Of a DNA stretch of 52,189 nucleotides, positions 20,608 through 26,340 are shown piece after piece. The notes below the pieces were generated by a model. That model was given only the letters and a program-made list of their open reading frames with translations, was not told the DNA's origin and did no database searches. The number at the start of each line of letters is the position of its first letter. Position 1 is the stretch's first letter. A program made the translations under genes and the position numbers. Origin of the DNA: Candidatus Parvarchaeum sp. (GTDB taxonomy: Archaea > Nanobdellota > Nanobdellia > Parvarchaeales > Parvarchaeaceae); the NCBI GenBank assembly GCA_049965555.1, contig JBMFWF010000006.1, positions 1-52,189 of the forward strand. Direction: 5' to 3'.

Positions 20608-21678
20608 ATGAGACCTGAAATCGTTATTTTAGGAGCATTTATTCTGCTTTTAGTCGTTGGCAGCGGACACGCTATTTCTGTGTCTGCTTCTTTTAATGCT
20701 TTAAACAGCAGTTTATCTATAAATCAGTACGCATATTTCAATTTATCTGCTTACTTCCCACTTGGAACAAACTACACGATTTTTCTTAATAATACTTCTA
20801 TACTTCAAGGAAATATTCCTGCGAATTATAGTGGGTATAAGATACTCCATTACAACATAAGTAATATGCCTTATGGGAGGTACTATCCGTCAGTTCGTTT
20901 CTCTGCGTTCAATTTTCACTTGAATTCCACCTCTAGTATAAATATAAGGCCTTCTCCAAATTTCTCTTTTATAGGAGATTACAAAACTACGGAGATAATT
21001 AAAAATTATTCATTGATAAAAATAGGGATTGAAAACAGCGGTAACACTCCTTTGCAGATGAACTGGTCTATACCAATTTTTAGGAATATCTCAATATCAC
21101 TTACATTTAATCAAACATTTAGATTGAACCCAAGTTCAAACATAACAATCCCGATAAATCTGTCACTGCAGAAGGGATATCAAAACAATATATTAATACC
21201 GTTTACCGGAAAATACAGAAACTATTCGATTACAAAATCATACGAAACAGTTCTAATAAAACCTGTAATCAACATGTCTTTCTACAATTTAAATGTCACT
21301 CCTATAAACGCAACTAGAGAACTTTGGGTTTCGGACATCAAAAATTACAACAATGTTCCATTAAATATAACTATAGAATTTTCACTTGAAGTAAATGGAA
21401 GTACCTTCCAGTACAATGTTCCTTATGAACTGGGAGTAAACGCAACTAAAATAGAGGTGATGCTTCCGAAAAGCACTGTCGAAAATGTAAAGATATTATA
21501 TGAATCTGGAAATTTATCTAAAGTAAATCAAAATATATTTACATTACCTAAGCAACCAAGCAGCATTGGAATTTTATCGATAGTAAATACTCTAGGTTAT
21601 GTAATATTGACAGCAGTGTCGATATTCATATTAATATTAATACACTTAAGATTTAACAGAAGAAACAAAAAGAAGTAA
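20608..21678 (+). CDS. Hypothetical cell-surface protein (signal peptide and C-terminal anchor)
   Basis: Signal peptide, very many N-X-S/T sequons, ENSGNTPL Ig-like motif, C-terminal TM followed by RRNKKK. Confidence 0.75.
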   Translation: MRPEIVILGAFILLLVVGSGHAISVSASFNALNSSLSINQYAYFNLSAYFPLGTNYTIFLNNTSILQGNIPANYSGYKILHYNISNMPYGRYYPSVRFSAFNFHLNSTSSINIRPSPNFSFIGDYKTTEIIKNYSLIKIGIENSGNTPLQMNWSIPIFRNISISLTFNQTFRLNPSSNITIPINLSLQKGYQNNILIPFTGKYRNYSITKSYETVLIKPVINMSFYNLNVTPINATRELWVSDIKNYNNVPLNITIEFSLEVNGSTFQYNVPYELGVNATKIEVMLPKSTVENVKILYESGNLSKVNQNIFTLPKQPSSIGILSIVNTLGYVILTAVSIFILILIHLRFNRRNKKK

Positions 21679-21679
21679 A

Positions 21680-22354
21680 ATGGAATTCATAAACAAAAGC
21701 AACATAAGGTTCTTTGCATACATATTGATAGACATAACGGCTTTGTTTATAGTAAACTTTTACTATCTAAATTCTTCGCAGTTGTTTTCGTATGCGCTGC
21801 TTATATTACTCGTATCTTTCCTTATATTTTTAACGAAGAATTTGATAGCAGGGCTTTTCCATGTAAAGGTAAGCGGAAACTTCTGGATCGCTGGATTTAT
21901 ATTTTCTATTATAGCAACATTGGTTGCATCTAGCTTCGGCATACCGATTCTTATGCCCGTAATAAGCTACAATAATTATAGCAGAATGAATACCATAAAA
22001 GGAATGAAAAAAGGGGCGGTCAATGTACATGAAAAATGGGAGATAACTTTCCTGTCTTCTTCCATACTTCTATTTGCTGCATTCACATTGATAACTTTAT
22101 GGCATTCTTTAAATGAAAAGGGGTTTTTAATGTCGGGGGTGGCATTAGCAATGTTTGTTTTGATTGATTTCTTGCCAGAAAGAAGATTTAATGGTGCAAA
22201 TCTCATTTACCATAATTCGGTTGTTTACGCAATTACATTCCTTTTCCTTTTAATAATTGGAATTCTAAGTGTCATAAACTATTTAGCATTCGTGATAACT
22301 TTCATAGTGTTTATATTGTTTATATTTATAACCTACATTACCAAACTTTGGTAA
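21680..22354 (+). CDS. Polytopic membrane protein, possibly a degenerate site-2 protease (M50) fold
   Basis: About 7 TM; DFLPERRFNG resembles NxxPxxxxDG; no HExxH. Confidence 0.6.
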   Translation: MEFINKSNIRFFAYILIDITALFIVNFYYLNSSQLFSYALLILLVSFLIFLTKNLIAGLFHVKVSGNFWIAGFIFSIIATLVASSFGIPILMPVISYNNYSRMNTIKGMKKGAVNVHEKWEITFLSSSILLFAAFTLITLWHSLNEKGFLMSGVALAMFVLIDFLPERRFNGANLIYHNSVVYAITFLFLLIIGILSVINYLAFVITFIVFILFIFITYITKLW

Positions 22355-22367
22355 TTTGAATTTTATA

Positions 22368-22456
22368 GTGAACTGCCCCAAGTTTTTGCATGGAGCTTCA
22401 CGCTTCTTTGGAAAAGGTTGTTATCCTCTGCGTGCATACTGCCCGGTTCCCGAGCA
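22368..22456 (-). ncRNA. TnpB omegaRNA (reRNA)-like scaffold
   Basis: Stems GCUCGG/CCGGGC (22455-22441), CACGC/GCGUG (22434-22430 with 22403-22399) and GCUCCA/UGGGGC (22396-22375), ending in UUCAC. Confidence 0.6.
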
Positions 22457-22660
22457 ACTATTTTATTCTCCTTCGGTCTTACATTGCACGAAGCTAATTT
22501 GTGCAAAAGAGCTTTCCCCTTTCGGGTAGGTGTAGCACTTTCAGCCTCCACCAAGACCTGCCTTTTACATATAATATTTGATTTTCCCATATTTGTACTT
22601 TTCCTTACCTCCTTTCATCCTACATCTTACGAAATGGGAATTCTTGGTGGAGTAGTTAAA
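22368..22660 (-). mobile_element. Non-autonomous IS200/IS605-type (TnpB) element or orphan omegaRNA locus
   Basis: Minus strand ends GAAGCGTGAAGCTCCA-N10-TGGGGCAGTTCAC, the layout of IS605/IS1341 right ends; several hairpins; no intact tnpB or tnpA. Left boundary uncertain. Confidence 0.6.
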
Positions 22661-22669
22661 GTTAGTTTT

Positions 22670-22684
22670 TATAACGCCGTTATA
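22670..22684. promoter_or_regulatory. Perfect palindrome TATAACG-C-CGTTATA, putative operator
   Basis: Abuts the TTTATAAA box (22685-22692) upstream of the HTH-sufCBD operon. Confidence 0.6.
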
Positions 22685-22704
22685 TTTATAAAGAACAAAA
22701 TTCT

Positions 22705-23076
22705 ATGAAAAGTATGTCAGAATTATTCTGCTCAAAAGTTATATCGGAGATAATACCCTCATCTAGGGCAATAATAGCAAACAAACTTCTAGAAAAGGGG
22801 ATGACGCAAAAAGAGGCATCAAAGCTATTGGGCATAACACAGCCTGCAATCTCACAATATAAAAGTGGCTTGAGAGGGCTGATAACAGAAAAGATGATTA
22901 AAAATGAGGAGTTTATGGCGTACTTAAATGAGCTAGCGGATAAGGTTTACACCAATAAATTGGACATAAATATTAAGACCTGTCAAATCTGCAAAGCAAC
23001 AAGGGACTTTGGAGTAATAAAGGAGAATGACATAAAGGAATTTCTTTGCCTGCTTCAAATTGCTGGTTCAAATTAA
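22705..23076 (+). CDS. XRE-type HTH transcriptional regulator with Cys residues (COG2522-like)
   Basis: GMTQKEASKLLGITQPAISQYKSGLRG HTH; Cys near the N-terminus, CxxC, and a C-terminal Cys. Confidence 0.85.
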   Translation: MKSMSELFCSKVISEIIPSSRAIIANKLLEKGMTQKEASKLLGITQPAISQYKSGLRGLITEKMIKNEEFMAYLNELADKVYTNKLDINIKTCQICKATRDFGVIKENDIKEFLCLLQIAGSN

Positions 23077-23077
23077 T

Positions 23078-23797
23078 ATGGAAAAGATGGAGATAAAAGG
23101 GTTAGAAGTGTCTATCAACCAGAAAAAAGTGCTTAATGGAGTAGACCTTTTGGTACAAAGAGGAAAAATACATGTTCTTATGGGGCCAAACGGCAGCGGA
23201 AAAAGCACGCTGGCAAACGTGATAATGGGAAACCCTAAATACACTATAACTGCCGGTTCAATAAAATTGGATGGAGAGGATTTACTTAAGTTAAAGGTAA
23301 ATGAACGCGCTAAAAAGGGAATATTTTTGGCTTTCCAGGAGCCAGTAGAGATTTCGGGAGTAAACACTATGAATTTTTTGATTACAGCGTATGCAAATCT
23401 AAAAGGGAAGGATCCCGAATTGAGAAAAGAAATCATAAAAAAGATGAACGATCTTAATCTCCCGGATTCATTTCTAAAAAGATCACTTAATGAAGGATTT
23501 TCTGGCGGAGAAAAGAAGAGATTTGAACTCCTTCAGGTTATGCTTTTCAAACCAAAAATTGCCATACTAGATGAAATTGATTCGGGGATGGATATAGACA
23601 GCGTAAGACTGCTTGGAGAAATAACCAAAAAACTATCTGAGGACACAGGATTTTTGATGATAACACATAATGACCATATCTTGGATTATGTAAAACCAGA
23701 CGTGGTAAGTGTAATGAAAGATGGCAAGATAATAAAAAGCGGAGATTACAAGCTTATAGAACAAATAAGAAAAGAAGGATACCGACAGTTGATTTAA
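23078..23797 (+). CDS. sufC: Fe-S cluster assembly ABC ATPase
   Basis: GPNGSGKST, FLAFQEP, NEGFSGGEKKR and LDEIDSG motifs; start set at ATG 23078. Confidence 0.95.
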   Translation: MEKMEIKGLEVSINQKKVLNGVDLLVQRGKIHVLMGPNGSGKSTLANVIMGNPKYTITAGSIKLDGEDLLKLKVNERAKKGIFLAFQEPVEISGVNTMNFLITAYANLKGKDPELRKEIIKKMNDLNLPDSFLKRSLNEGFSGGEKKRFELLQVMLFKPKIAILDEIDSGMDIDSVRLLGEITKKLSEDTGFLMITHNDHILDYVKPDVVSVMKDGKIIKSGDYKLIEQIRKEGYRQLI

Positions 23798-23798
23798 A

Positions 23799-25193
23799 AT
23801 GGAAAAGATAGAATTTGATTACAGCAAATATGACTTTAAAAACTCAACTGCAAAATACAAGATATTATTCAACGAAGGTTTATCAGAAGAAGTTGTAAGA
23901 AGGATTTCAAAACTTAAGAATGAGCCGCAATGGATGACAGATTTCAGGATAAATGCCTATAAATTCTTTGTAAGAAGACCTGTGCCAGAATGGGGTGCCG
24001 ACCTTTCAAAGATAAATTTTGAAAATATAACTTACTTTGCAAGGGCGACTGATAAGAAAACAAATAGTTGGGATGATTTGCCGGAAGACATAAGGGATAC
24101 TTATGACAGATTAGGGATACCTGAAGCTGAGAAGAAATCACTTTCAGGGGTCGAAGTAATGTATGAAAGTGAGGTAGTTTACAACAGCATAAAAAAAGAA
24201 CTTGAAGAGCTTGGCGTAATCTTCTGTGATACGGATACTGCAATAAGAGAATACCCTGAGCTAGTTAGAAAATACTTTGGAAAAGTTATTTCTCCTAACG
24301 ATAACAAATTTGCGGCATTGAATTCCGCAGTCTGGTCTGGGGGGAGTTTCATATACGTTCCAAAGGGCGTAAAGGTACCAATGCCATTGCAGGCTTATTT
24401 CAGGATAAATGCCGCAAACATGGGGCAGTTTGAAAGGACATTAATAATAGCAGATGAAGGCGCTGATGTAACATATATTGAAGGTTGCACAGCGCCAGTT
24501 TATTCTAAGGACTCATTGCATGCTGCAGTGGTAGAAGTCATAGCCCATAAAAACTCACATGTAAAATATATAACAGTACAAAACTGGTCAAGTGATGTTT
24601 ACAATTTGGTAACCAAAAGAGCATTTGCATATGAAAATGCATTTGTAGAATGGATAGACGCAAATATGGGCTCAAAGGTAACAGAAAAGTATCCTTCGGT
24701 TTACTTGATGGAACCGGGAGCTAAATCAAATGTGCTTTCAGTTGCATTAGCAAATAAGGGCCAGCATCAAGACACAGGAACAAAAGCCGTACATCTAGCA
24801 CCAAACACAAGCTCTGTTATAAGATCAAAGTCAATATGCCTTAACGGGGGGAGAACGACATATAGAGGCCTTGTAAAAGTGAAAAAAGGAGCAACAGACG
24901 TTAAGTCAAGCACAAGATGCGATGCATTGATATTTGATGATTTTTCAAGAACTGACACTTATCCCTATATGGAAATAGATGAAGAAGAAAGCACGATATC
25001 GCATGAAGCGTCGGTTGGCAAAATAGGAGATGAGCAACTGTTCTATCTGGAGTCAAGGGGTTTATCGGAATTGGAGGCAATAAACATGATAGTTCTTGGT
25101 TTTATAGCAGAATTTGTAGAGGAGCTGCCAATAGAATTTGCGGTTGAATTTAACAGATTAATAAAAATAAATATGGAAGGAGCAGTCGGTTGA
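23799..25193 (+). CDS. sufB: Fe-S cluster assembly scaffold SufB
   Basis: NKFAALNSAVWSGGSF, GQFERTLI, EGCTAP, LHAAVVE and RCDAL motifs. Confidence 0.96.
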   Translation: MEKIEFDYSKYDFKNSTAKYKILFNEGLSEEVVRRISKLKNEPQWMTDFRINAYKFFVRRPVPEWGADLSKINFENITYFARATDKKTNSWDDLPEDIRDTYDRLGIPEAEKKSLSGVEVMYESEVVYNSIKKELEELGVIFCDTDTAIREYPELVRKYFGKVISPNDNKFAALNSAVWSGGSFIYVPKGVKVPMPLQAYFRINAANMGQFERTLIIADEGADVTYIEGCTAPVYSKDSLHAAVVEVIAHKNSHVKYITVQNWSSDVYNLVTKRAFAYENAFVEWIDANMGSKVTEKYPSVYLMEPGAKSNVLSVALANKGQHQDTGTKAVHLAPNTSSVIRSKSICLNGGRTTYRGLVKVKKGATDVKSSTRCDALIFDDFSRTDTYPYMEIDEEESTISHEASVGKIGDEQLFYLESRGLSELEAINMIVLGFIAEFVEELPIEFAVEFNRLIKINMEGAVG

Positions 25194-25200
25194 TCCTTTT

Positions 25201-26340
25201 ATGAAAGGGAGCAAAGAGCCTGATTGGCTTTTAGAATACAGAAAAGAAGAGAAAATAGCCTCGGATAAATTAAGCCTAGAGGACAGAAAGATATTCTTAA
25301 AATACGCAGAAAGAGAAAGCGAATTTTATTTTAATGAACTTAAGGTAAAAAACGACGGGCTAAATAACTTACTGTACTATGATAAAGAAACTTTCAAAGA
25401 CAAATTAGAAATTGAAAACTTAAAAGATCTAAAAGAGAAACCTGAGGAATTCTATGAATTTAAAGATAAAGACAGGGTAGAAGCCATTATAAATGCAAAT
25501 TTTGATGAGGGGATTATAATAAAATTTAATGATAACATAAATGTAGGTAAGCCCTTTAAAATAAGACAGACTGTAGAATCTGGGAGAAAAATAACAAAAA
25601 TTATATTAGTGATAGGGAAAAACAGCAAACTTTACATTGCAGATGAAATAGATTCGTTCAAAAATTCTTATTCTGGCCAAAACCTATACATAATTTTAAA
25701 AGAAGATTCTGAACTCAACTTTATGCTCTCAGATAAATCAAGAGGAGCAAGTATTACGAATATTAATTTAATTACAAAAGGAAGGGTTAATTTTCTGTCT
25801 ATATTGACAAATGAAGCAGTAAATCGAAATAGGTTATGGATAAAAATGCTTGAGCATGCTGAGGTAAATATAAAACAAGGGCTAATAGGCAATGGTGAAA
25901 GTTATTTTGACATTGAAAGTGAGATAACACATTCTGAAAAAAACACTAAAAGTAATGTTAATTACAAAGCCGTTTTGGACAACGACTCAAAGGCTGTTTA
26001 TAAAGGAGTTATTCGACAGGAAAAACTAGCAACCAATTCATATGCTTACCTTTCCGAGAATTCCTTAATACTTGATAAAAATGCAAAAAGCATTTCAGTG
26101 CCTAGTTTAGAGATTGAAACAAATGAACTTAAAGCGTACCATTCGGCATCTTCTCAACCATTAGATAAAGAATTGCTTTTTTATGTAATGTCTAGAGGGT
26201 TGAGCAGAAGCTCTGCCATAAAAATTGTAGCAACTGGATTTGTAGAATCGGTATTTGGCAGAGCAGAAAATACAGTATTTATGGACGAATTAAAAAATTC
26301 AATAGAAAACAAAATGGAGTATTTAGGTGATAAACTTTAA
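25201..26340 (+). CDS. sufD: SufD family protein
   Basis: EPDWLLEYR start; SVPSLEIETNELKAYHSAS and LFYVMSRGL motifs. Confidence 0.88.
   Translation: MKGSKEPDWLLEYRKEEKIASDKLSLEDRKIFLKYAERESEFYFNELKVKNDGLNNLLYYDKETFKDKLEIENLKDLKEKPEEFYEFKDKDRVEAIINANFDEGIIIKFNDNINVGKPFKIRQTVESGRKITKIILVIGKNSKLYIADEIDSFKNSYSGQNLYIILKEDSELNFMLSDKSRGASITNINLITKGRVNFLSILTNEAVNRNRLWIKMLEHAEVNIKQGLIGNGESYFDIESEITHSEKNTKSNVNYKAVLDNDSKAVYKGVIRQEKLATNSYAYLSENSLILDKNAKSISVPSLEIETNELKAYHSASSQPLDKELLFYVMSRGLSRSSAIKIVATGFVESVFGRAENTVFMDELKNSIENKMEYLGDKL

Follow-up and report, generated by a model that had tools for sequence, protein, structure and literature searches.

A non-autonomous IS200/IS605-family element in a DPANN archaeon carries a predicted standalone TnpB omegaRNA scaffold

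The window analyzed here covers the 52,189 nucleotides of contig C6 in a genome assembly (G000) of 784 kb that is 92% complete. It contains a 288-bp mobile element that is almost certainly a PATE (palindrome-associated transposable element). The element belongs to a kind of mobile DNA that has already been described, a PATE carrying a predicted standalone TnpB omegaRNA scaffold at its right end. We propose with moderate confidence that this right end has the fold of a TnpB omegaRNA and that the TnpB of related elements uses the RNA in trans to cut nothing but the empty site of the element itself. An earlier note on this DNA had placed an orphan omegaRNA-like scaffold at 22345 to 22460 and offered two readings, a non-autonomous element or a domesticated guide RNA; the right end within those coordinates is real, but they cover just the last third of the element, which is gene-less, present in several copies, and missing from orthologous sites, in line with the first reading. 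The features are as follows.

21680 to 22354, plus strand: host flank, an uninterrupted 224-aa ORF with no family match (NCBIfam/Pfam)
22352 to 22367, minus strand: predicted 16-nt guide, identical to host flank (spacer and stop codon of the upstream gene), with orthologous sequence after the junction in empty sites
22368 to 22655, minus strand: whole non-autonomous IS200/IS605-family element (PATE, "type B"), 288 bp, bounded by empty sites and by the copies on contig C12
22368 to 22456, minus strand: right end, predicted TnpB omegaRNA core, 89 nt (fold, alignment, ISDra2 registers)
22456-22451/22445-22440, minus strand: omegaRNA stem 1 (predicted fold)
22449-22446/22373-22370, minus strand: omegaRNA pseudoknot (predicted fold)
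22434-22430/22403-22399, minus strand: omegaRNA stem 2 (predicted fold)
Between stem 2 and the terminal hairpin, minus strand: short omegaRNA stem 3 (predicted fold)
22395-22376, minus strand: omegaRNA terminal hairpin, end TCAC (predicted fold)
22458 to 22567, minus strand: middle segment, ~110 nt, non-coding and possibly structured (model R1, codon counts, alignment)
22590 to 22597, minus strand: TATA-like box, a putative promoter, degenerate in the window copy by alignment (its third base is C, whereas most other type-B copies have TATA)
22608 to 22655, minus strand: left end with subterminal hairpin and outer stem, common to tnpB-carrying elements (also 5′ of the tnpB start on contigs C4 and C13 and in genomes G031, G029, G001, and G012)
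22656 to 22660, minus strand: TTTAA target motif, the predicted TAM, host DNA directly 5′ of the element
22705 to 26340, plus strand: host flank with an HTH regulator, sufC, sufB, and sufD (profile searches, alignment); the element lies ~50 bp upstream

The boundaries of the element follow from relatives in which its site is empty. Among 60 relatives searched, 27 gave some match, and both flanks of the site were recovered in at least 9; 7 of those were aligned across the locus with both flanks, and the orthologous site was empty in all 7. In genomes G005 and G013, where both flanks are present, the coordinates leave gaps of 30 to 33 nt. The empty-site alignment thus places a 288-bp element, running from 22655 to 22368, 3′ of TTTAA, with no target duplication and with the target motif outside the element. 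At the empty-site junctions, TTTAA and then the flank were found in three of seven genomes, CTTAA in two, and no TTAA in two. The same TTTAA stands before 9 of 9 left ends (allowing up to 5 mismatches, with a left-end query from which the motif was omitted). Terminal inverted repeats are absent, the ends not being reverse complements of one another; hairpins lie near both ends, and the ends are common to IS605-type elements. The 288 bp appear to have no coding role: overlapping frames had no Pfam match at E < 0.1, and changes are spread evenly across codon positions. No tnpB lies between the element's own ends, so that it does not count as a coding IS1341/IS605 element.

The genes of the window are archaeal, with a PriL-type primase match and Nuo and Suf genes. 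On one side of the element, adjacent ORFs of 356 and 224 aa (20608 to 22354) have no NCBIfam or Pfam match above cut-off, and the 3′ end of the 224-aa ORF is conserved beside suf genes in relatives. On the other, a palindrome, TATAAC-N3-GTTATA (22670 to 22684), stands just upstream of HTH-sufC-sufB-sufD, is nearly invariant in 8 aligned genomes, and is likely the operator of the HTH regulator encoded at 22705 to 23076; the element landed 10 bp outside this palindrome and spared it. At a different locus (L007:1455-1745, on G013:C6), a decayed type-B copy lies between what, judging by motifs, are a ribosomal protein gene and a kae1-like gene. The native ATG position there reads ATT, and the sole in-frame ATG close by falls within the right end of the element and adds 23 residues; this start shift could be an exaptation or a draft-assembly error (the frame also breaks near residue 205).

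BLASTN of 22251 to 22760 against the source genome detected two near-full copies on C12 (94.1% and 94.4% identical to the window element), the 5′ part on C9, and, on C3, C4, C10, C13, and C17, matches to the left and right ends separately. Besides the window element, the genome holds two full type-B copies, one partial copy, two type-A miniatures of 143 bp, one copy with a tnpB 5′ stub, and one lone right end. Contigs C4 and C13 open with the same left end, after which come codons 1 to 144 of a tnpB; C25 encodes a 191-aa C-terminal TnpB piece with PF01385 and PF07282 above cut-off; and C10, which overlaps C25 by 16 nt, begins with the last tnpB codons and a right end. These pieces at contig ends probably derive from a multicopy element broken by assembly. 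The C25 piece presumably keeps all three RuvC acidic motifs. Complete elements of ~1.3 kb, with left end, tnpB, and right end in that order, are found in G031, G029, G001, and G012, and in G008 a tnpA cut by the contig start directly precedes a gene for a TnpB that is 84 to 85% identical and has the same right-end type. Across 40 genomes of the order, PF01797 (tnpA) is present in 4, in one case beside a near-identical TnpB.

Neither tnpB nor tnpA is on the window contig, as the earlier note had read from the 52 kb: profile searches place none there, and tblastn with the TnpB pieces matched C13, C4, C3, C25, and C17 only. The profile search of the source genome matched C25 with PF07282 and PF01385 and gave one further PF07282 match, below cut-off, on C1, so that a single gene, for an IS-type TnpB, stands above the PF07282 cut-off. 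The description of the scaffold as an orphan nevertheless fails, since the same genome has tnpB elements, broken at contig ends, that share the left end and have a related right end. Of the objects of the BLASTN check that had been suggested, copies and empty sites were found.

Several side observations concern the assemblies and the wider family. Contigs C19, C20, C21, and C26 of the source genome are small, have retrotransposon-like open frames, and probably entered the bin as eukaryotic contaminants; C23 (54% GC, secY-like) looks foreign too. The family (loci L078 to L095) carries several unrelated TnpB clades with differing right ends, and G011 has 17 PF07282 matches. Two miniatures, L041 and L049, lie shortly upstream of tRNA-like sequences, and L049 consists of ~60 bp with two fused ends.

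The minus-strand letters quoted in the earlier note, including the 10-nt N10 spacer, the TTCAC end at 22368, and the next 18 nt taken as guide, are all present, and fold, pairing, and ISDra2 registers agree with its reading of an IS605/IS1341-type right end with the TnpB omegaRNA layout. Folding of 22352 to 22462 gave a z-score of -2.21, with 4 of 200 shuffles as good. Pairs were counted on 10 of 13 right-end rows, three distant rows being left out, and these 10 chosen ends comprise 4 type-B ends, 5 tnpB-linked ends, and 1 type-A miniature; the 22 named pairs give 219 cells, of which 96.3% pair, a figure inflated by kin that are not independent. Double-sided changes affect 6 of the 22 pairs (16 cells), a level reached by none of 500 shuffles, and slid controls pair at 31 to 41%. 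In place of the CACGC/GCGTG stem, most tnpB-linked ends have CTCGC/GCGAG; the change is truly compensatory and bears out the earlier claim of a CACGC/GCGUG replacement stem with pairing intact, and stem 1 has three more such changes. The pseudoknot is 100% paired but invariant and hence without covariation signal. Relative to type A, the type-B right end is without ~25 nt of stem 3.

Counted from the element end, positions -5 to -3 pair with the stem-1 loop, -35 to -32 belong to stem 2, and -20 to -17 form the terminal loop; these are the registers at which the ISDra2 structure (PMC10097598) has its pseudoknot, stem 2, and tetraloop. An Rfam search over the window returned no match at gathering score and two chance-level matches at E 3.6 and 5.1 (E < 10). 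We interpret the right end as a TnpB omegaRNA-type scaffold, for which transcription and TnpB binding are predicted.

The guide consists of ordinary host sequence. The eight right ends of the source genome are followed by eight different guides. In its own genome, the window guide has no TTTAA-adjacent target (best match 12/16 among 5,160 TTTAA sites; longest seed 7 nt), and an exact-match scan of viral contigs did not detect the TAM plus this guide. Since the guide is host flank and has no other TTTAA-adjacent target, a TnpB supplied in trans would go only to the empty allele of the element itself. A guide RNA domesticated to act in trans, aiming a TnpB, Cas12f, or TldR-like protein at a target in the host or in a virus, would fit the absence of a nuclease gene from the contig and the position beside the suf promoter region, but the site is empty in relatives, the guides come from the flank and differ between right ends, neither target search succeeded, and the single TnpB found keeps its RuvC motifs while the element is still mobile; we consider this reading extremely improbable. 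TldR proteins are nuclease-dead TnpB repressors, and the window element shares with them a TnpB-type guide scaffold; unlike TldR systems, it is mobile, its guide is not conserved, no target was found in the searches above, and the resident TnpB keeps its catalytic motifs.

In the use in trans that we favor, a Y1 TnpA acting in trans would excise and insert the element as a single strand, as in published IS200/IS605 biology; minus-strand transcription would give an RNA of scaffold plus flank; this RNA would load a TnpB from a sister element elsewhere in the genome; and that TnpB would cut the TTTAA-plus-flank alleles left by excision, whereupon recombination would copy the element back. The proposal starts from observed boundaries without duplication, empty orthologous sites, copies, shared ends, compensatory pairing, and a guide identical to the flank. 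Its steps have published counterparts: PATEs often encode omegaRNAs that need TnpB in trans, and cutting of the empty allele followed by recombination restores the element (both 10.1101/2023.03.14.532601); standalone omegaRNAs work in trans (PMC10691335); an archaeal TnpB has TTTAA as its TAM (10.1101/2023.03.06.531077); and archaeal omegaRNAs are expressed, though that work contains nothing specific to the present element (PMC12558985). Counted against it are a resident tnpB seen only in pieces, the lack of a PF01797 match in the 92% complete source assembly and the scarcity of tnpA in the order (4 of 40 genomes), a mismatch in the window copy in the closing pair of the terminal loop, the degenerate TATA-like box, and the failure to find a tnpB with a type-B right end in relatives, at R1 loci (described below), or among metagenome matches. 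Because of this last result, the fit of the type-B RNA to the resident type-A TnpB is an assumption, and the shortening of stem 3 by ~25 nt also counts against it. The same PATE could instead carry an idle RNA, its right end kept as a DNA signal for TnpA and its scaffold a passive inheritance that goes unexpressed or that the resident TnpB does not load. That would accommodate the box, the hairpin mismatch, and the missing type-B tnpB, and many type-B copies in relatives do have decayed right ends; yet stem 1, stem 2, and the pseudoknot, which are not part of the terminal DNA hairpin, are intact in each of the four aligned type-B ends, and stems 1 and 2 show compensatory changes relative to tnpB-linked ends. 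We judge an idle RNA unlikely, though it deserves real weight.

The middle segment is missing from tnpB-carrying type-A elements. The TATA-like box precedes it by 30 nt, and the box precedes the tnpB ATG by 28 nt in a type-A element. At E ≤ 0.1, model R1, built from 7 middle-segment copies, matched 16 times; these matches, 7 of them the training copies, fall in 8 of 40 genomes from the order, and the 8 belong to a single genus. Across 151 genomes of the phylum, R1 matched in the source genome only. None of the 16 R1 loci has a TnpB match nearby, and over 33 tnpB, tnpA, and PATE loci R1 gave just two matches, at E 0.29. In the search for a parent element with a type-B end or middle segment, a GTDB pattern search returned 4 stretches, all gene-less type-B copies; viral contigs had 0 type-B matches, and 0 for type A too; plasmids had one weak match and phages none; and metagenomes had 0 matches to the middle segment and 17 to the right-end pattern, whose flanks contained no TnpB match. 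Several of these 17 resemble other archaeal PATEs, and several are chance matches.

Three candidate identities for the segment were rejected. As a small ORF, it shows 4 synonymous versus 15 non-synonymous codon changes; as a tnpB remnant, it has a 14-nt match to the type-A tnpB that is not above shuffles; and as a hammerhead, HDV-like, or RNase P RNA, it has no fit by eye to the consensus features and no Rfam match. We consider it most likely to be a leftover from an unsampled element, and give little credence to a functional RNA domain. Were it such a domain, type B would be a promoter-plus-RNA cassette of ~200 nt, in which the 5′ segment either belongs to the long omegaRNA used by an unsampled TnpB clade or serves as a stabilizing or processing module for gene-less guide RNA production. 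The start of the segment where tnpB starts in type A, its non-coding character, and a layout kept in copies from 8 genomes would suit that, and the segment admits two helices and a pseudoknot in which 87.8% of 164 cells are paired, with several wobble changes. However, the structure was drawn from the same sequences on which it was then scored, the folding z-score is -0.63, and Rfam gave no match; the 4 double-changed pairs are equaled by a control slid by -1 and matched or exceeded by 6 of 500 shuffles, with none in the pseudoknot helix; and PATE interiors are often mere deletion leftovers (PMC3119063). The cassette therefore seems to us improbable. Its fullest version, which we regard as just as doubtful, would make type-B PATEs a long-lived, genus-specific, RNA-only cassette, with the tnpB promoter, a 200-nt RNA, and a new pseudoknotted 5′ domain replacing the gene, that makes omegaRNA without a tnpB message and parasitizes TnpA and TnpB in trans.

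Two decayed type-B copies (L134:1501-1613 in G020 and L135:1501-1601 in G002), apparently at one site before the same gene, retain the TATA-like box and middle segment and have lost the right end, which suggests that the type-B family is old and may donate promoters. Six metagenome loci (L116, L123, L127, L128, L112, and L117) are further elements without genes whose right end has this CACGC/GCGTG stem, and the left end of L116 is similar as well; they are probably PATEs of other archaea.

The closest published counterparts are the PATEs of Haloquadratum walsbyi (PMC3119063) and the PATE-like elements of Geobacillus stearothermophilus (10.1101/2023.03.14.532601), which like the window element are short, have subterminal palindromes and IS605-type ends, lack a transposase, terminal inverted repeats, and target duplication, have a 4- to 6-nt target motif outside the element, and often have an omegaRNA. 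Unlike those elements, the one described here is in a DPANN archaeon and has a 110-nt middle segment without a parent among the databases searched. The TTTAA motif is shared with SisTnpB1 (10.1101/2023.03.06.531077). Set against IS1341/IS605 elements with TnpB, the window element has no tnpB in cis, a core of 89 nt rather than 116 nt, a short stem 3, and a TCAC end. The standalone omegaRNAs of OMEGA systems (PMC10691335) are likewise mobilized RNA loci without effector or transposase, in genomes that also have effector-carrying copies, but their function in trans was demonstrated, whereas here it is predicted. A literature search, mostly of non-subscription papers and their main texts, yielded no published description of the type-B family.

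With these results, a small DPANN genome gains a family of PATEs that carry standalone omegaRNA scaffolds, along with a TnpB clade whose predicted TAM is TTTAA. These elements form a natural set for asking whether a scaffold that has diverged and been shortened to 89 nt is accepted in trans by a single TnpB. The finding would matter more if the middle segment were a functional RNA domain, as it would then solve guide-RNA production in gene-less elements.
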